DNA of 64,000 nt from positions 13,017-77,016 of the forward strand of contig CAWIFB010000030.1 of the NCBI GenBank assembly GCA_963835335.1. The letters are read 5' to 3'. The notes under the pieces are model-generated. The model saw nothing but the letters and a program-made list of their open reading frames with translations, was not told the DNA's origin and ran no database searches. Shown piece after piece: positions 1-29,006 of this stretch. The position numbers and the translations under genes are program-made. Source of the stretch: an uncultured Chloroflexia bacterium. GTDB taxonomy: Bacteria > Chloroflexota > Limnocylindria > Limnocylindrales > CSP1-4. Position 1 is the first letter of the stretch; each line of letters begins with the position of its first letter.

Positions 1-123
1 AAGACGGGCGGCAAGAGCGGCGACTGGCATCGGCCGGCCCCCGAGGTCGAGCCGGACCGGCCCCGCCGGCGGCCCGGTGACCGGATCGCTGGCCGGGTCG
101 GCAAGCGCAAGGGCGCCGGGTGA
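1..123 (+). CDS. moaC: 3' end of cyclic pyranopterin monophosphate synthase MoaC (partial, enters from upstream of the window)
   Basis: Frame-1 translation KTGGKSGDWHR matches the conserved C-terminal (S/T)GGKSG motif of MoaC. Stop is TGA at 121-123, and a MogA/MoaB gene follows. Confidence 0.5.
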   Translation, partial: KTGGKSGDWHRPAPEVEPDRPRRRPGDRIAGRVGKRKGAG

Positions 124-20492: not shown

Positions 20493-21173
20493 TCAGCTAC
20501 CGGGCAGCCACGCCTCGACCCGCGCCCGTGCCGTGTCGTCTGTCAGGGGCCCGTTGATCACCTCGAGGATGCGTCCGTCGGGGCTGATGAAGAACTGGGT
20601 CGGCAGCGCGAACACCTTGTACAGCCCGAAGATGTCGGCGGAGGCGTCGAACGCGATGTCGTAGCCGAGCTCGTAGCGCTGCGCGTAGGCGCGTACGTCG
20701 TCGACCGTCGTCTCCTGGACCGCGACCCCGATGATCGACAGCCCGCGGGATGCGTACGTGGCGTCCATGTCGCGCAGCACCGGCGTTTCGGCCTGGCACG
20801 GCGGGCACCAGGTCGCCCAGAAGTTGAGCCACACCAGCCGGCCGCGAAGGTCGGCCAGTCGGACCGGCTTGCCGTCGAGATCGGTCAGCGTCATGGAGGT
20901 CCCGTCGTCGCGGACTGCCTCGAGCTCGGGGGCGAGGTCGCCGGGCCGCAGCCCTTCCGTGGCCGGCCCAAGCAGGAATGGCGTCGACGCCGGGATCGTG
21001 ATCGTGCCGTTGGGGCCGGCGGCGATCGGGCGGGTGACGACGGTCAGTGTGACCGCGGCGACCACGACGACCAGGAGCACGGTCAGCAGCTGCCGGCCGC
21101 TGAACGGGCCGACGAGCCCGCGCCGCGGGGTGGGCGGGTTCGGCTGCGGACCCGGCTCGGGCGCCGCCGTCAT
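20493..21173 (-). CDS. TlpA/ResA-like membrane-anchored thiol:disulfide oxidoreductase
   Basis: Thioredoxin motif WATWCPPCQ and an N-terminal TM anchor. The ATG overlaps the ccdA stop (ATGA). Confidence 0.9.
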   Translation of the reverse strand: MTAAPEPGPQPNPPTPRRGLVGPFSGRQLLTVLLVVVVAAVTLTVVTRPIAAGPNGTITIPASTPFLLGPATEGLRPGDLAPELEAVRDDGTSMTLTDLDGKPVRLADLRGRLVWLNFWATWCPPCQAETPVLRDMDATYASRGLSIIGVAVQETTVDDVRAYAQRYELGYDIAFDASADIFGLYKVFALPTQFFISPDGRILEVINGPLTDDTARARVEAWLPGS

Positions 21174-21988
21174 ACGAACGACGTGAACTGGAAGTAGCGC
21201 GGGAGGAGGACCAGGAGGTCGAAGATCATCGCGAGCCCGATGGCCACGACGAGCAGCCCGCCGATCAACGAGACCGCGTGCCCGTGGCGAACCAGGAACC
21301 GGGTCACGCGCGTTGCGCGATCGTAGAACGCCGCGATGAGCAGGAACGGGATGCCCAGCCCGGCCGTGTAGCTCACCAGGAGCAGCGCGCCCTGGAGCTT
21401 GGTGTCCGAGACCGCGGCCATCGTCAGGATGCCGCCCAGGATCGCGCCGATGCAGGGCGTCCAGCCGATGGCGAAGATGGCGCCCAGCGCGAACGCAGCG
21501 GGCAGGCCCGCGCGGCCCCCGACGAGCCGCCGTCCGAGGCGCCCGCCGGCACCGCCGCCCGGGCTGCCCCCAGCTGGTGCCAGCGTCATGCCTCCCGTCA
21601 TCGACGTGAGCCCCGCCGACGCCCCGGCATCGAGCGGACGCCACGTCCGCTCGAGGATCGGGATGTTGACGAGGCCGGCCAGGCTGAGGCCCATGATCAC
21701 GAGCACGAACCCGCCGATCACGCGCAGCGGCTGGATGTAGTCGGCGATCGCACCACCCGCGAACGCGGCGGTGACGCCCAGCAGCGTGAACACCGTGCCG
21801 AACCCGGCGACGTACGCCGCCGCGTGGCGCATCGCCGCCCAGCGCGACGGCGCCTCGCCCTGGTTCGCCGCCACGGCGACCGCCGTGAGCTGGCCGAGGT
21901 ATGCGGGCACGAGCGGCAGCACGCACGGCGACAGGAACGAGATCAGGCCGGCCGCGAAGGCGACCAGAATCGTGTAGTCCCCGGTCAT
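21170..21988 (-). CDS. ccdA: Cytochrome c biogenesis / thiol-reductant transfer protein CcdA (DsbD-like)
   Basis: Multi-TM protein with FLSPCVLPLVPAY and GWTPCIGAILGGIL, the two conserved Cys motifs of the CcdA/DsbD core. Confidence 0.9.
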   Translation of the reverse strand: MTGDYTILVAFAAGLISFLSPCVLPLVPAYLGQLTAVAVAANQGEAPSRWAAMRHAAAYVAGFGTVFTLLGVTAAFAGGAIADYIQPLRVIGGFVLVIMGLSLAGLVNIPILERTWRPLDAGASAGLTSMTGGMTLAPAGGSPGGGAGGRLGRRLVGGRAGLPAAFALGAIFAIGWTPCIGAILGGILTMAAVSDTKLQGALLLVSYTAGLGIPFLLIAAFYDRATRVTRFLVRHGHAVSLIGGLLVVAIGLAMIFDLLVLLPRYFQFTSFV

Positions 21989-22278
21989 CCGACGGTCACC
22001 GCTTCGCCGTCGAGCGCCTGGGCGAGGAACCGCCGCAGCTTGGCGGCCGTGGTGGCCAACTCCAGCTCGTGGCCGCCGAACGTCACGACCGGGATGGTCA
22101 GCGCGTACCTCCGCTGGAGCGCCTCGTCATCCTCGATGGTCCGCTCCTCGAATGGTGGAACGGGGAGGCCGCGGGAAACGCGGTCGGCGAGGAGGGCATC
22201 GAGCATCGCGCGCGCGTCCTCGCACAGGTGGCATCCGGGGCGACCGTACAGGACCAGGGAGGGAAGGGGAGTGGTCAC
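21985..22278 (-). CDS. Glutaredoxin-like protein (97 aa)
   Basis: LVLYGRPGCHLCEDA CxxC motif. GTG start at 22278. Its stop overlaps the ccdA start (ATGA). Confidence 0.75.
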   Translation of the reverse strand: MTTPLPSLVLYGRPGCHLCEDARAMLDALLADRVSRGLPVPPFEERTIEDDEALQRRYALTIPVVTFGGHELELATTAAKLRRFLAQALDGEAVTVG

Positions 22279-22381
22279 GTGACCGATTGTAGGCGGGCTT
22301 TCGCGATCGGCCCGGCGACGCGCGGGCGGCGATTGCAGTCGCGACCCTCCCGCGGCGTCGGGCGCCCGTATCATCGCCACC

Positions 22382-22780
22382 ATGCCGGAGCCCTCGCTGT
22401 ACGACCACGTCGGCGGGATTGCCTATTTCGAGCGCCTCGTCGACCGCTTCTACCGGGGGGTCGAGGGAGATCCGGCCCTGCTCGCGCTGTATCCGGACCA
22501 AACGGATCTTGCGGGCGCGCGGCGTCGGCTCACGCTCTTCCTCGTGCAGTACTGGGGCGGCCCAACGACGTACCTCGAGGAACGCGGGCACCCGCGGCTG
22601 CGCGCGCGACACTCCCGGTTCTCGATCGGCTGCCGGGAGCGCGACCACTGGCTGATCCACATGCGGGCGGCAATCGACGAATCCGAGGCCCAGCCGGACG
22701 CGCGGACAAGGCTCCACGAGTACATGACGATGGCCGCGGACGCGATGCGCAATCGCGAGGATCTGCCTGCCGCGACCTGA
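22382..22780 (+). CDS. glbO: Group-II truncated haemoglobin (GlbO-like)
   Basis: LYDHVGG...F..LVDRFY..V..DP.L..LYP, YWGGP..Y...RGHPRLRARH..F.I are typical 2-on-2 globin motifs. Confidence 0.85.
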   Translation: MPEPSLYDHVGGIAYFERLVDRFYRGVEGDPALLALYPDQTDLAGARRRLTLFLVQYWGGPTTYLEERGHPRLRARHSRFSIGCRERDHWLIHMRAAIDESEAQPDARTRLHEYMTMAADAMRNREDLPAAT

Positions 22781-22804: not shown

Positions 22805-22880
22805 GCCCCCGTAGCTCAGTGGATAGAGCGCAGCCGTCCTAAGGCTGGCGTCGGCGGTTCGAATCCGTCCGGGGGCGCCA
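22805..22880 (+). tRNA. tRNA-Arg (anticodon CCT), CCA encoded
   Basis: Manual fold: acceptor GCCCCCG/CGGGGGC, D arm GCTC-AGTGGATA-GAGC, anticodon stem CAGCC/GGCTG with loop GT-CCT-AA, T arm GGCGG-TTCGAAT-CCGTC, discriminator G, then CCA. Confidence 0.95.
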
Positions 22881-23163: not shown

Positions 23164-23907
23164 TCAGCGCGGTTGGATCTCGATGGAAGCGATGATGCCC
23201 TCGAGCTCCGCGCGGTCGGTGGCTGTGGTCATGGCCGGGATCCGGGCGAAGAACGTCTCGCGTGTTCCGTCAATATCGAGGACGTAGATCCTGTTCACCT
23301 CGTCGTTCCCCTGGACGAACCGGGGGTCGCCGGCCGAGCCCCATATCCAGAAGGCCTGCGCTCCGCAGGTCGTGATGTCCGTGGCGACCGTTACTTCGAC
23401 CGACTTGCCCGGATAGCCGTCGATCATCACCGCGGTCGGCTCGGCGCTCGTCACGCCAGGCTGGCGAGCAATCGCCTCGATGAGGTCATCGATGCTGGGT
23501 CCTGGAGGCGGATCGAGCAGCGTGTGATCCGTACAGGCGTTCACATAGCGGTTGCTGATGGGCCACACCCCCAGACCTGGGCCCGCCTGTGCCTCCGTTG
23601 GTCCGTAGTCCTTCCGAACGGAGAAATCCTCGAGTGAGGACCAGCCGTCCGGGACGGTGATTTCGATGGCGAACCCTCTGCCCCTGTCGCCCATGCCTCC
23701 CATCAGGTAACGACCCGCATCGAGACGCACCTCGCCGACGATGAGATTTGGCGTTCCCCTAGGTGTCGCTGATCCGGCGCCCGCTTGGACGACCCCGGGA
23801 ACGGCCGCGGTTTCTCCCGGAACCGCTGCGAGAGCGCACCCGACGACCGCGACCGCGATGATGCTCGCCGATGCGGCGGTCCACGCTGTGATGTATCTCA
23901 TGCTCAT
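23164..23907 (-). CDS. Secreted lipoprotein of unknown function, paralogous to the anti-sigma extracytoplasmic domain
   Basis: ATG at 23907 after GGAGACGGGAGC. Lipobox is AVAVVGC. It shares TVPDGWS, a conserved Cys pair and the C-terminal ..ID...AEL..II.SI.. region with CDS 24744-25751. Confidence 0.75.
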   Translation of the reverse strand: MSMRYITAWTAASASIIAVAVVGCALAAVPGETAAVPGVVQAGAGSATPRGTPNLIVGEVRLDAGRYLMGGMGDRGRGFAIEITVPDGWSSLEDFSVRKDYGPTEAQAGPGLGVWPISNRYVNACTDHTLLDPPPGPSIDDLIEAIARQPGVTSAEPTAVMIDGYPGKSVEVTVATDITTCGAQAFWIWGSAGDPRFVQGNDEVNRIYVLDIDGTRETFFARIPAMTTATDRAELEGIIASIEIQPR

Positions 23908-24030
23908 GCTCCCGTCTCCTGCCGTGCGAACCTTGGACGTAGTCGCGGGATCGATCACCCGGAAAGCGGCATGCCCCAGCGTCCGCGCTCCGCAGTCGGC
24001 ACACGAGCGATCAACCTGATCGCCTGCCCC

Positions 24031-24063
24031 GCATGAGCCGCCCACTGTCGCAATCGTTCCATC
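24031..24063 (-). promoter_or_regulatory. ECF-type promoter-like motif facing the lipoprotein gene
   Basis: The minus strand reads GATGGAACGATTG-N13-CTCATGC, identical in both boxes and in spacing to the plus-strand copy at 24115-24147. Confidence 0.5.
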
Positions 24064-24114
24064 TCCGATCCCCAGGGTGGGCGGGAGTTGTCATCGGACC
24101 GGCAAGCTGACACG

Positions 24115-24147
24115 GATGGAACGATTGGTGTCGCCAAGGGCTCATGC
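24115..24147 (+). promoter_or_regulatory. ECF-type promoter-like motif facing the sigma factor operon
   Basis: GATGGAACGATTG-N13-CTCATGC, with a GGAAC -35-like element. It ends 43 nt upstream of the sigma factor ATG. Confidence 0.5.
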
Positions 24148-24189
24148 TAGGTAGCGCGGTCACCCCGATCGCCGAAGGCAGGTGCCGGA

Positions 24190-24747
24190 ATGCAGCGTGA
24201 TCTCGTCGAACGAGCGAGAACTGGCGACCGTGAGGCGTTCTCACACCTTGCCTCGGCCTCGTTCGACCAGCTGTTCCGGACCGCCCGACTGATTGTCCGG
24301 GACGAGGAGCGAGCGGCCGACGCGGTCCAGGAGGCGCTCTTGTCTGCCTGGCTCCACATCGGTGCCGTCAAGGATCCAGATCGGTTCGAGGCTTGGCTGC
24401 GCCGGCTTCTGGTCCATGCCTGCTATCGCGAGGCGCGCCGCGCCCACCACCGTCGTGTGATGGAGGTGGAGGTCACGTCGCTCGTTGGGCCGACCCGAGA
24501 TGACGTCCAGCGAGCGACGGCGATGCGCGACGAACTCGCTCGCGGTTTCGGGCGGCTGCGCCTCGACCACCGGGCCGTCCTGGTCGTCCACCACTACCTG
24601 GGCCTCACCGACCCGGAAGCGGCCGCGGTCCTCGACATCCCCCTCGGCACGTACAAGTCGAGGTTGCATCGGGCGACCGACGCCATGCGGGCAGCCCTCG
24701 AAGCGGACAGCCGCACGCCGGTTCGGACACAGGAGTCGATCGCATGA
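24190..24747 (+). CDS. ECF (group 4) RNA polymerase sigma factor
   Basis: Region 2 (DAVQEALLSAWLHIGAVKDPDRFEAWLRRLLVHAC) and region 4 (LDHRAVLVVHHYLGLTDPEAAAVLDIPLGTYKSRLHRA). Confidence 0.9.
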   Translation: MQRDLVERARTGDREAFSHLASASFDQLFRTARLIVRDEERAADAVQEALLSAWLHIGAVKDPDRFEAWLRRLLVHACYREARRAHHRRVMEVEVTSLVGPTRDDVQRATAMRDELARGFGRLRLDHRAVLVVHHYLGLTDPEAAAVLDIPLGTYKSRLHRATDAMRAALEADSRTPVRTQESIA

Positions 24748-25751
24748 CGACGAACGACGCGTTCGACGCCACTCTGAACTCGTGGCTTGACGACGAAGCT
24801 TCGGCCCAGATCCCGAGCGTTGGCAGGGAGCACCTGTTCGCGGAAATCGTAACGCGACGGCGGCGGCCCGGACCCCTCGCCGGGCTCGGCAGCCACTGGA
24901 TCGCCGATCCCTCCACGCGAGCCGGCTTCGGAAGCTCCCGGCGCGTGCTCGGACTGCCGGTCGCGATGCTCCTGCTGCCGCTGTTGGCTCTCGCGCTGCT
25001 CGGCGCCACGATGCTCGTTGCTGGCTCGCTCGGCGAGATCACGATTGCACCACCCGTCCCGGACGGGCACCTGCCGAGCAACATTCCCGTGAGCACAGCG
25101 CGGGTTGGACCCTTGTTCCCGGACGTGATTCCGGCTGTGGGTCGGCTGACTCCCGGCACCTACTCCTATCTCGACGTGGACGGATCCGGCGTCAACGCGC
25201 AATTCACGGTGCCGGACGGTTGGAGCTGGGACGGCCGATCGCTCCGCAGGGATGGCTCCGGACCGGTCGATGGTGCGGCGATCATGTTCTTCGGCAACGC
25301 GGCGGATGTAGAGGTCTATGTCGATCCGTGCCGCTGGTCGGAGGGGCGATCCGCGGTCGTCACAGACACGGTCGACGGCGTTGTCACGGCGCTGACACTT
25401 CAGCCGTCGCGAAACCCGACATTGCCACCCAATCCTTGGGTACCCGGTGTCAATGTCCCGGATTCGTCACGCGGTCTCGTGGTTGACCTGATCGTTCCCG
25501 CGGGTCTGGACATCACCGGCTGCGACGAGGGCGAGTATCGAAGTTGGACGATCGGCGACATCAGTCGATCCCATGAAGGCCGAGGACAGCGCGACAGCGT
25601 TTCGATCATCGACATCTACGGCATGTACGGTGGTCAGAGTGGTCCGGGCGGGATCATCATCGATGCCGCGAGCTTCCCGAATACCTCACCCACCGTCATG
25701 GCGGAGATCGACGCCATCGTCGACAGCATCGTCTTGGGTCACTGGGGGTGA
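24744..25751 (+). CDS. Putative anti-sigma factor: short cytoplasmic N-terminus, one TM, ~230-aa extracytoplasmic domain
   Basis: ATGA overlap with the sigma gene. TM segment is LGLPVAMLLLPLLALALLGATMLVAG. There is no HxxxCxxC zinc motif. The C-terminal domain is homologous to lipoprotein 23164-23907. Confidence 0.7.
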   Translation: MTTNDAFDATLNSWLDDEASAQIPSVGREHLFAEIVTRRRRPGPLAGLGSHWIADPSTRAGFGSSRRVLGLPVAMLLLPLLALALLGATMLVAGSLGEITIAPPVPDGHLPSNIPVSTARVGPLFPDVIPAVGRLTPGTYSYLDVDGSGVNAQFTVPDGWSWDGRSLRRDGSGPVDGAAIMFFGNAADVEVYVDPCRWSEGRSAVVTDTVDGVVTALTLQPSRNPTLPPNPWVPGVNVPDSSRGLVVDLIVPAGLDITGCDEGEYRSWTIGDISRSHEGRGQRDSVSIIDIYGMYGGQSGPGGIIIDAASFPNTSPTVMAEIDAIVDSIVLGHWG

Positions 25752-26244: not shown

Positions 26245-26584
26245 GCCACCACCATTCGATCGACGAGCTCCGCGATGGCTCCGCGGATCGCAGGATCCTC
26301 GACCGACCGCGTCCGGTTGCCCTGGCCGGGCCGGAGGTTGATCATCGAGTCGAACTCGAGGAAGTCCGCTGTCCCGTGCTCGGTTGGGTAGAGGTTGATG
26401 CCCAGAGATCGGTCTGGGCGGAGCCGGCGTCGAGGAGCAGTGCCTCGAGGTCGCTGTGCATGCCGGCGTCGACCGCGAGCAGCCCGCGGCGCACGTCGGC
26501 GACGGCCTTCACGAGGTCGACGAACGTGGCCTCGGCCATGGTTGAGAGCTCTGCGACGGTGATCCGTCCCGCAACGATCTGCAT
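26241..26584 (-). pseudogene. Small conserved protein (resembles the family I recall as DUF5674) split by a 1-nt frameshift
   Basis: The N-terminal part MQIVAGRITVAELSTMAEATFVDLVKAV..DAGSAQTDLW continues sensibly only in another frame, as GINLYPTEHGTADFLEFDSMINLRPGQGNRTRSV... The junction is at a G/C run near 26399-26404. Confidence 0.55.
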
Positions 26585-27253: not shown

Positions 27254-29006
27254 GTGGATGCTCCCGAGGTGCGGGCGAGGTCGATGCCGGCGCTCACGCG
27301 CCGTGAGCGCGATGTGCTGGAAGCGCTGTGCAGGCCGTTGGCAGCGGAGCGGCCCGTCGCGATGCCCGCCTCGATCCGTGAGATCGCGGCCGAGCTCGTG
27401 GTGACGGAGGCCGCCGTCAAGCAGCACCTCCTGAACCTGTACGACAAGCTCGGGGTCGCGCGAGGGGACGGAGAGCCGGCGGATCGCCCTGGCGCGCGAG
27501 GCGGTGATGCGGGGCTTCCTGCCCGGTGTCGGGCCGCCGGCGCGCGCCGGCACGAGCAGGCTCGACGCGGGACGCGCCGCCGCGAGGAACCGCGCGTGGG
27601 ATGACGCGTACGCTGCGCTCTCCGAGGCGGCTGCGGTGCAGTCGCTCGACGTCGCCGACCTCGAGCTGCTCGGCGACGCCGCGACGTGGACCGGACGGTT
27701 CGACGCCTCGACGGCGGCTCGTGAGCAGGCGTACGCCGCGTACCTCTCCCTGGCTGATCGCCGGTCGGCCGCCCGCGTCGCCCTCGGGCTCGGGTGGAAT
27801 GCCGCCGTCACGCTCCGCTTTTCGATCGTCGCCGGCTGGATGGCGTCGGCAGGTCGATTGCTGGCAGCCGAGGCACACGGGGACGACGGCGAGGCACCCG
27901 TCTGGCCCGAGCACGGGCTGATGCTGTCCCTCATGGCCCTGAATGAGCTGAGCACGGGACAGCTCGAACCCGGCTTGGAGCATGCACGTGCTGCGTTCGA
28001 CATCGGGCGGCGGACCGGCGACCCGGACATCCAGGCCCTGGGCCTCGTGTTCCAGGGCTTCGGGCTCGTCCACCAGGGGCGGCTCGACGAGGGTCGCGCG
28101 CTCCTCGACGAGGCGATGGCGAGCGCAACGGCAGGCCACCTCGGGACCCTCGCGCAGGGGATGGTCTACTGCCGGACGCTGAGCGCCTGCCTCGACACGT
28201 TCGACTTCCGACGGGCCATCGAGTGGACCGAGGAGATCGAGCGGCGTGCGCCGTCGGTCGGGACCGTGGGGTTCCCGGGAGACTGCCGGACGCACCGGGC
28301 TGCCGTGCTCGTCGTGCGCGGCGACTGGCCTCGCGGCGCTGAGGAGGCGGAAGCTGCGGCGGCCGAGTCGCGTGCCTACGACCTCGGCCACACGGTCCAG
28401 GCGCTCACCGCGCTCGGAGAGATCCGCCTGCGGCAGGGTGACCTCGCCGCGGCCCATGACGCCTTTGACCGCGCCGCCGACCTCGGCCTGCCGCCGGGGC
28501 CGGGGTATGCGCTGGTGCTCCTCGCCGAAGGTGATGCGCGTGGAGCGCTCCAGGCCATCGCCCGCGCCCTGGGCGGCGCCGGCGAACCGTTGAGCCGAGC
28601 CCGCTACCTTCCTGCCGCCATCGAGATCGCGCTCGCCGCGGACGACCTCGATCAGGCGCGCACGTCCTGCGCTGACCTCGCGGAGATCGCCGACGCGTTT
28701 CCGGGCCCGGCGCTCGCGGCGACACTGGCCGCGTGTCGGGCTGCCGTCTCGTTGGCGGCCGGCGACGCGTCGGAAGCGATCGATCTCGCCCGAGATGCAG
28801 CGCGGCGTTGGCGTTCGGTCGGCGCTCCCTATGAGGTAGCGCGGTGTCGGATGCAGGTGGCGACCGCGGCCGCAGCTCTCGGCGACCGCGACGACGCTGT
28901 TCGCGAGGCTCGGGCCGCACTCGCGTCGTTCTCAACGCTCGGGGCGCAGCGGGACATGAAAGCGGCTGCTGATCTCCTCGATCACCTCGACCGACTCGCG
29001 ACGTAG
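27254..29006 (+). pseudogene. LuxR-type HTH + TPR-like regulator, apparently frameshifted near 27465-27480 (alternatively two genes, 27254-27604 and 27504-29006)
   Basis: The GerE-type HTH (LTRRERDVLEAL..SIREIAAELVVTEAAVKQHLLNLYDKLGV) ends in an Arg-rich nonsense tail. The other frame continues as SRRIALAREAVMRGFL into a ~490-aa helical-repeat domain. Confidence 0.45.

Follow-up and report, generated by a model that had tools for sequence, protein, structure and literature searches.

Autoregulation is common among extracytoplasmic function (ECF) sigma factors, and the DNA upstream of divergently transcribed genes is a usual place to look for their promoters; Todor et al. (2020) searched exactly such positions to build their promoter collection (PMC7776599). 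In the general paradigm (PMC7776599; PMC7826278), a two-domain sigma factor is coupled translationally to a membrane anti-sigma factor, the -35 element contains AAC, the 5' untranslated region (UTR) is short, and one and the same motif stands before the sigma gene and before its divergent neighbour. These traits, some of them by prediction, recur in a 64,000-nt stretch of DNA from an uncultured soil Chloroflexia bacterium (GTDB lineage Bacteria; Chloroflexota; Limnocylindria; Limnocylindrales; CSP1-4; assembly GCA_963835335.1, CAWIFB010000030.1:13,017-77,016, forward strand), which is called the window hereafter and whose positions serve as coordinates. An ECF sigma gene (24190-24747), followed by a gene for a putative membrane anti-sigma factor (24744-25751), stands back to back with a lipoprotein gene, and the region between them carries the same bipartite motif on both strands. 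The locus departs from the paradigm in the -10 element of the sigma factor's family, which reads C[T/C/A]CAT(A) rather than being of the CGTC, CGTA or GTC types, and in the sigma factor itself, which falls into an uncharacterised family expanded in Candidatus (Ca.) Limnocylindria and reaches the cut-off of no NCBIfam equivalog. We propose that the two motifs are probably back-to-back promoters read by the adjacent sigma factor, which would thereby regulate its own synthesis and co-induce the lipoprotein.

Two described systems come close to the one proposed here. The sigma-E (RpoE) of Escherichia coli, whose gene is autoregulated, reads promoters of the form GGAACTT-N16-TCAAA. The motifs in the window resemble these in the GGAAC of the -35 element, in a -10 element with TCA at about equal distance and in the proposed autoregulation, whereas RpoE is a distant protein (E 1.4e-9 to structure 1or7), the host here is a monoderm member of the Chloroflexota and the putative anti-sigma factor is unrelated to RseA. 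Mycobacterium tuberculosis SigL (6dv9, the closest solved structure) and the actinobacterial SigE-type factors of model TIGR02983 share the ECF fold and a GGAAC-type -35 element with the system in the window, and their co-encoded single-pass anti-sigma factor has a putative counterpart there, but they are remote from it (E 9e-13; 97.8 bits against a cut-off of 141.55) and have another -10 element and another anti-sigma domain.

The mirrored motif pair and the sigma family promoter

The initial annotation, made from the letters of the window, had reported a bipartite motif occurring twice, exactly and in opposite orientations. A pattern search allowing up to three mismatches confirmed this, as GATGGAACGATTG-N13-CTCATGC was found in exact form at 24115-24147 (+) and 24031-24063 (-) and nowhere else in the 64 kb, and the looser pattern GGAAC-N14-22-CTCAT matched the same two sites only. 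The motif did not occur in any of 100 dinucleotide-preserving shuffles of the window, so that a chance origin is very unlikely, as had been claimed. On the -10 side, the identity between the two copies is longer than the 7-mer and covers a shared 9-mer, GGCTCATGC. The boxes are 100% identical, and the 13-nt spacers between them (GTGTCGCCAAGGG vs CGACAGTGGGCGG) are alike at about 3 of 13 positions. The mirror symmetry runs past the boxes into a GC-rich inverted repeat lying 7-8 nt beyond each -10 box (GCGGTCAccccGATCGC at 24156-24172 on the plus strand; GCGATCAggtTGATCGC at 24023-24007 in minus-strand reading). We failed to find any sigma-70-like promoter or intrinsic terminator in a scan of 23700-24400. 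The length of 144 bp that had been given for the intergenic region holds only when the lipoprotein gene is counted from the start of its longest open reading frame (ORF), GTG 24045; with the supported start, ATG 23907, the region spans 23908-24189 and measures 282 bp.

The gene beside the motif encodes an ECF sigma factor, in agreement with the initial annotation. Its product passes the Pfam cut-offs for Sigma70_r2 (39.6 bits) and Sigma70_r4_2 (30.8 bits), as well as that of the NCBIfam model TIGR02937 for the sigma70-ECF superfamily (48.9 bits, cut-off 42.9). None of the named ECF equivalogs in NCBIfam (SigE-fam_strep TIGR02983, SigM, SigW, SigY and RpoE) reached its cut-off; TIGR02983 was the best of the specific models, with the score given above, and the others scored far below. 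The solved structures nearest to the protein are those of M. tuberculosis SigL, CnrH, SigW and RpoE (E 1e-12 to 1e-9). Pfam and NCBIfam thus place the protein at the level of the superfamily, and, judged by homology, it belongs to an uncharacterised ECF family, of which it is the only member encoded within the window.

The sigma protein was scanned against one genome per GTDB species, and the relatives considered here (loci L001-L080) are 80 among the matches listed, 135 having been confirmed. All 80 loci are from Chloroflexota, mostly from metagenome-assembled genomes (MAGs) of Ca. Limnocylindria/Limnocylindrales, and their sigma proteins are 46-73% identical to that of the window. Several genomes among the matches listed carry multiple copies, often as tandem sigma/anti-sigma arrays. 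A 2026 paper (PMC13212565) reports more sigma factors in soil lineages of the class Limnocylindria than in freshwater ones, the factors themselves not being described there.

The 100 nt upstream of these sigma genes show a constant order of elements, namely (G/T)GAAC, a spacer of 19-20 nt, C/T/A-CAT-A, 6-7 nt ending in a pyrimidine-purine (Y-R) step, after which come a hairpin rich in GC, a ribosome-binding site of the GAGG type and the start codon. Promoters were counted over 81 loci, with eight windows of ~80 loci each as controls: [GT]GAA[CGT]-N17-20-[ACT]CA[TA]N was present at -110 to -40 in 57 of the 81 loci, against 0-1 in each of the controls. Of these 57 promoters, 55 have a spacer of 19 or 20 nt. 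The end of the -10 box lies 41-51 nt (median 46) 5' of the start codon, and positions 6 and 7 after the -10 pentamer are a pyrimidine in 48 and a purine in 52 cases, respectively. This geometry implies predicted 5' UTRs of ~35-45 nt, in line with the 20-40 nt that are typical for ECF promoters (PMC7776599).

The plus-strand copy in the window fits the scheme. The distance between its -35 and -10 pentamers is 19 nt, as in 33 of the 57 family promoters, and with its bipartite build, its AAC-containing -35 element and its fixed spacer it is, on this comparison, an ECF promoter of the family-wide, autoregulatory type. The -10-like box had been described as not belonging to the common CGTC type, and indeed no CGT(C/A) core is present; the family -10 box reads [C/G][C/T/A]CAT[A]C. 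The unusual box of the window is therefore accounted for by a CAT(A)-type -10 element common to the whole sigma family. Outside the cores, the flanks of the boxes vary between paralogs, the median locus sharing 12 of 21 positions with the boxes of the window. Among the matches listed, the boxes most like those of the window are those of the closest sigma orthologs, L001 (19/21) and L002 (18/21).

The same promoter could be traced in metagenomes. The pattern ATGGAACGAT-N13-GGCTCAT (17 specified bases) gave 70 matches in JGI metagenome contigs; ~55 of them are chance matches in unrelated, mostly low-GC DNA, and on 12 high-GC contigs the motif lies ~75 nt before sigma orthologs of 56-80% identity. 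The exact motif, with 20 specified bases, had no match in these contigs.

The lipoprotein gene and the paralogous loci

The minus-strand copy faces the lipoprotein gene, for which the initial annotation had estimated a leader of about 115 nt before ATG 23907, a figure that agrees well with the 118 nt counted from the predicted start A24025. Two starts further upstream were rejected: GTG 24045 lies 5' of the predicted transcription start, and GTG 23958 lacks a Shine-Dalgarno sequence. A lipobox of the form [LVI][ASTVI][GAS]C was recognised by eye in the window protein (MSMRYITAWTAASASIIAVAVVG/C), in its closest homolog, P0002 (VALIG/C), and in a homolog on contig L150 (LLASA/C), and the N-terminal MSM is kept in P0002.

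P0002 (245 aa, 73% identity) is encoded on the NCBI MAG contig L081, where its gene is preceded by GATGGAACGATCG-N13-CTCATAG. Both the boxes and their spacing are thus kept, the spacer sequence is unrelated, and the gene adjoining the lipoprotein ortholog is not a sigma gene. Conserved boxes, drifting spacers and another genomic context indicate selection on a bipartite site that is tied to the lipoprotein gene. On the same contig, a lone mirrored GATGGAACG (465-473, -), which is a -35 element without a -10 element, lies 29 nt upstream of the lipoprotein promoter and may be a relic of a mirrored arrangement; beyond it (148-500), ~330 nt of lower-GC non-coding DNA are followed by an unrelated gene.

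The lipoprotein matched no family in Pfam or NCBIfam. It is related to the putative anti-sigma factor of the window (BLASTP E 2e-5), which in turn aligned over its full length with family alignment A2 (hhalign, probability 99.2%, E 9.5e-20), and those of its homologs that measure 290-300 aa (55-60% identity along the C-terminal 75%) are encoded directly behind ECF sigma genes (L082, L085). Because these homologs and the window's putative anti-sigma factor belong to one family, the lipoprotein is, in terms of homology, the extracytoplasmic sensor domain of the family's putative anti-sigma factors in free-standing form. The domain has two invariant Cys residues and a PCTDHT motif. With its AlphaFold model (pLDDT 83.5), Foldseek retrieved M. 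tuberculosis Apa, LpqN and Mtc28, the Jonesia protein 3lyd, PsbP and DcrB at E 3.5e-4 to 3.5e-2, probability 0.93-1.0, modest TM-scores of 0.3-0.57, or 0.37-0.57 by target length, root-mean-square deviations of 7-10 A and 9-15% identity. The model therefore suggests a PsbP/Mog1-like domain in the sense of a resemblance of fold only: the predicted fold of the lipoprotein and of the anti-sigma sensor domain resembles that of secreted proteins and lipoproteins such as LpqN, Mtc28, Apa, DcrB (Salmonella) and 3lyd, all of them located in the cell envelope, whereas no motif is shared with these proteins, the function of which is itself poorly defined.

In the putative anti-sigma factor, a short N-terminus on the cytoplasmic side is followed by a single hydrophobic segment and then by an extracytoplasmic domain to which the lipoprotein is homologous. 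Neither a known anti-sigma domain nor any other family model was matched in Pfam and NCBIfam scans of this protein. Its homologs are always encoded directly after a sigma gene (e.g., L082 and L085), and we infer an anti-sigma role for it. In L150, a sigma ortholog of 72.6% identity is paired with an anti-sigma factor (L150:197-1471, -) bearing PD40 beta-propeller repeats in place of the PsbP-like domain. Compared with the window's protein, it presents the sensor domain as a modular part, swapped on a conserved N-terminal module.

The same design recurs beside other paralogs. In L083 and L084, a paralogous sigma gene is divergent from a gene for a stand-alone homolog of the lipoprotein domain (P0029 and P0030), and TTGAGTCGC-N16-CCCATACC is present on both strands between the two genes with 0 mismatches and with differing spacers; a mirrored pair, TTGAGTCGC-N16-CCCATAC(C), is likewise present in L085. 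The second sigma gene of L150 (4154-4690) is preceded by TTGAACCGCC-N14-GGTCATANGG, which reappears 2.4 kb downstream before the gene for a 284-aa lipoprotein with the same domain. Across these loci, the boxes of the target promoter are seen to change together with those of the adjacent sigma gene's own promoter, and because they do so, the adjacent sigma factor most plausibly recognises both. This is the strongest evidence short of experiment. Together with the family promoter and the ortholog in L081, the recurring paralog designs give comparative support to the earlier claim that the sigma factor autoregulates and also drives the divergent gene.

Some of these loci hint at further targets. 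A third exact copy of TTGAGTCGC-N16-CCCATAC in L084 (1260-1291, +) precedes a gene for a 439-aa protein with a VCPO_2nd domain, which suggests that the small regulons reach beyond the lipoprotein-domain homolog. On a further high-GC contig from the metagenome scan, L122 (GC 0.67), a copy of the window's motif type, GATGGAACGATTC-N-GGCTCATAC at 56-85 (+), is followed by a hairpin and by an ORF (110-379) whose product is small, secreted and His/Cys-rich and has a signal peptide; the contig encodes neither a sigma nor a lipoprotein homolog, and the ORF is a possible further regulon member in a relative. Apart from these, the sigma gene of L083 (1254-1805, -) is seemingly frameshifted, only a fragment of region 4 having been called, and P0004 is a chimera in which a sigma N-terminus is fused to the lipoprotein domain. 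Both are signs of decay or rearrangement in the expanded family.

Hairpins in the leaders

Stem-loops at the 5' end are known to stabilise bacterial mRNAs, as in the leaders of E. coli ompA and of Bacillus subtilis ermC and aprE. The GC-rich inverted repeats in the window would place similar structures in both transcripts, with an onset ~1-3 nt past the predicted starts A24153 and A24025 (at +2 or +3), and across the family the stem is GC-rich and 6-8 bp long. In L001-L080, the hairpins lie ~15-35 nt before the ribosome-binding sites of nearly all sigma genes. Of 58 leaders, 36 had a hairpin in which 7 or more of 8 pairs form and whose start falls 12-15 nt past the -10 pentamer's first base, and the same positional test on 200 dinucleotide shuffles gave a mean of 2.5 and a maximum of 8; the folding z-score over the 58 leaders averaged -1.46. 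A covariance model (R1), built from 20 examples of fixed geometry, was searched over 685 kb. Its top matches were mostly sigma leaders, and the best two in the window were both leader sites. All 8 pairs of the seed alignment have changed on both sides, which none of 500 shuffles reached, although the seed had been picked for pairing and the count is therefore biased towards structure. Compensatory changes are also visible when the stem of the window (GCGGTC/GATCGC) is set beside those of its orthologs in L123 (GCGGTCA/TGACCGC) and L150 (GCGGCC/GGCCGC). The leader of the minus-strand copy folds into the hairpin whether the minimum-energy or the centroid structure is taken.

RNAalifold predicted no structure on a plain MAFFT alignment of the 58 leaders, in which the hairpins, being unlike one another in sequence and in the length of the loop, had not been aligned correctly. 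No Rfam family covers the hairpins or the region, the sole match being SECIS_3 at chance level (15.8 bits vs a gathering score of 63). Beyond its 5' hairpin, the 118-nt lipoprotein leader showed no structure, its overall fold being no better than shuffles (z +0.41), and the leader of the L081 lipoprotein gene is poorly conserved and shorter. An intrinsic terminator was ruled out, as no U-tract follows the stem, and a protein operator is disfavoured because the stem sequence varies between paralogs. The hairpin is most likely a 5'-end stabilising stem-loop. It is similar to the ompA, ermC and aprE leaders in that a stable hairpin lies a few nt from the predicted 5' end and is conserved in structure and not in sequence; it differs from them in that the 5' end and the effect on stability are predicted ones, and in that the hairpin is common to a whole family of sigma genes.

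The proposed circuit, its alternatives and its meaning

The alternative that survives best accepts both copies as real ECF promoters and has them served by a different, paralogous sigma factor of the same specificity elsewhere in the genome, or shared by several paralogs through cross-talk. The strong expansion of the family, which places several and often tandem paralogs in one genome, speaks for it, and our view is limited to 64 kb. Nevertheless, the extended boxes are not the same from one paralog to the next and follow the adjacent sigma factor, L001 and L002 being closest to the window in both protein and boxes, and the targets in L083-L085 and L150 carry the boxes of the adjacent sigma factor, not those of another. 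We consider this alternative improbable.

The selection on the bipartite site before the lipoprotein gene bears on two further alternatives, a fresh duplication and a palindromic operator, and speaks against each of them. According to the former, the minus-strand copy would have arisen neutrally when the sigma promoter was recently duplicated in inverted orientation, and would have no role for the lipoprotein gene. The complete identity of the boxes is what a fresh copy would show, and no second copy stands beside the sigma orthologs in the L001-L080 loci, 57 of which had a recognisable promoter and were checked. A recent copy would, however, share the spacer as well, whereas the spacers in the window are unrelated; moreover, upstream of the lipoprotein ortholog (73% identity), boxes and spacing have been retained around yet another spacer, and two other paralog lineages have built the same arrangement with different boxes. 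Very little probability is thus left to a duplication without function. The same small probability is all we give to an operator for a dimeric or tetrameric DNA-binding regulator of both genes: in form the region is a long inverted repeat, and palindromes are frequent binding sites for regulators of divergent genes, but the arms are 84 nt apart centre to centre, in place of the close half-sites in conserved arrangement expected of a palindromic operator, each arm has two parts separated by a free 13-nt spacer and shows the family-promoter geometry at a fixed distance from sigma start codons, the boxes occur as a single copy before the L081 lipoprotein ortholog and as direct repeats 2.4 kb apart in L150, and no sigma-70-type promoter is left in the region for such a regulator to act on.

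Several observations weigh against two promoters read by the adjacent sigma factor, and they should be set beside the evidence in its favour. The -10 box is atypical for ECF promoters. No second self-similar copy (up to 4 mismatches in 21 positions) was found within ~4 kb of the 57 GTDB loci with a recognisable promoter, where the extra promoter-plus-hairpin modules all precede further sigma paralogs, and no lipoprotein homolog was found near the closest sigma orthologs, L001 and L002; the mirrored layout is therefore not universal. The hairpin of the plus-strand copy is weak: its stem has 6 bp, and the isolated 49-nt leader takes another structure as its minimum-energy fold (z +0.39). In addition, no obvious hairpin was found at the equivalent place of the L081 lipoprotein leader. 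A search among RNA runs found none with this sequence. Finally, we infer the sigma dependence and the start sites from comparative genomics, and the function of the putative anti-sigma factor, the kind of signal sensed and the part played by the hairpin have the same status.

If the two motifs are genuinely promoters of the adjacent sigma factor, the circuit would operate in this order. At rest, the sigma factor would be held by the membrane anti-sigma factor (24744-25751). A signal acting through the extracytoplasmic PsbP-like domain of the anti-sigma factor would then lead to release of the sigma factor, and RNA polymerase carrying it would fire both promoters together. Transcription from the plus-strand promoter (start A24153) would yield the sigma/anti-sigma operon and thus constitute positive autoregulation, while that from the minus-strand promoter (start A24025) would yield the divergent lipoprotein gene via its ~118-nt leader. 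Each transcript probably opens with a short GC-rich stem-loop, most likely as a 5'-end stabiliser. The induced lipoprotein would be a free, membrane-anchored copy of the sensor-domain type, and may serve as the system's output or as a partner in feedback. It is attractive to speculate further that an undescribed ECF group has expanded massively in soil Ca. Limnocylindria, that the CAT(A) -10 element together with paralog-specific boxes insulates dozens of paralogs from each other, that the 5' hairpin of every sigma transcript acts post-transcriptionally, and that the induced lipoprotein feeds back as a decoy or co-receptor for the same ligand. We hold this combination, taken as a whole, to be a rather unlikely one. 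The features of the locus on which the proposed circuit is built are collected in Table 1.

Table 1. Features of the divergent sigma/lipoprotein locus in window coordinates.
Feature	Position	Strand	Basis
ECF (group 4) sigma factor gene, 185 aa	24190..24747	+	Pfam Sigma70_r2, r4_2, Sigma70_ECF
Putative membrane anti-sigma factor gene, 335 aa; start overlaps sigma stop (ATGA)	24744..25751	+	ORF, homology
Lipoprotein gene, 247 aa; signal peptide with lipobox VVG/C	23164..23907	-	ORF, homology, AlphaFold model
Shine-Dalgarno sequence AGGAG, 8 nt 5' of ATG 23907	23916..23920	-	Sequence; L081 equivalent AAGGAG before ATGAGCATG
Extended -35 box GATGGAACGATTG, candidate sigma-operon promoter; core GGAAC 24118-24122	24115..24127	+	Sequence, pattern search, family consensus [GT]GAAC[GC]nTT
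-10 box GGCTCATGC, candidate sigma-operon promoter; core TCATG 24142-24146	24139..24147	+	Sequence, family alignment (family core [CTA]CAT[A/G])
Extended -35 box GATGGAACGATTG, candidate lipoprotein promoter	24051..24063	-	12/13 kept before L081 ortholog
-10 box GGCTCATGC, candidate lipoprotein promoter	24031..24039	-	L081 ortholog has GGCTCATAG, spacing equal
Predicted transcription start A, 7 nt past -10 pentamer; predicted 5' UTR 37 nt	24153	+	Predicted from family Y-R step
Predicted transcription start A, 7 nt past -10 pentamer; predicted leader 118 nt	24025	-	Predicted from register of plus-strand copy and family Y-R step
Predicted 5' leader hairpin, stem GCGGTC/GATCGC (24156-24161, 24167-24172), loop ACCCC; weak copy	24154..24174	+	Best window match of model R1; in seed
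Predicted 5' leader hairpin GGCGATCA-GGU-UGAUCGCU, core 24023-24007	24005..24025	-	Second-best window match of model R1; outside seed

The surroundings of the locus were also inspected. A tRNA-Arg gene (anticodon CCT; 22805-22880, +) is found ~280 nt past the lipoprotein gene's 3' end, with a bacterial-globin gene (22382-22780) on its other side. A thiol-redox/cytochrome-c-biogenesis cluster at 20493-22383 (-) encodes a Redoxin/AhpC-TSA protein with WCPPC, a DsbD_TM (CcdA-like) protein and a Glrx-like protein, and a link to envelope thiol stress is conceivable, given the two invariant Cys residues of the lipoprotein domain. Downstream of the putative anti-sigma gene are a DUF5674 gene (26342-26584, -) and a gene for a GerE/LuxR-type helix-turn-helix protein (27254-27604, +), the latter being overlapped in another frame by a large TPR (MalT-like) gene (27504-29006, +).

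Autoregulation combined with a divergent target is textbook ECF wiring. What is new here is the uncultured Limnocylindria lineage, the CAT(A)-type -10 element, extended boxes specific to each paralog, a hairpin conserved in the leader, and, as the target, an anti-sigma sensor domain copied into a separate protein. No transcription signals had been described for Ca. Limnocylindria before, and the locus offers a concrete candidate regulatory unit, composed of a sigma factor, an anti-sigma factor, two promoters, two predicted starts and one target, in members of this class that are abundant in soil and uncultured. The family model, [GT]GAAC-N19/20-CAT(A) with a Y-R start and a leader hairpin, would be usable to annotate promoters and small regulons in Limnocylindria MAGs. 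As each paralog has its own extended boxes, the family may also represent a natural set of potentially orthogonal sigma/promoter pairs, and the recurring association between an ECF sigma factor and a stand-alone copy of an anti-sigma sensor domain hints at a feedback design.

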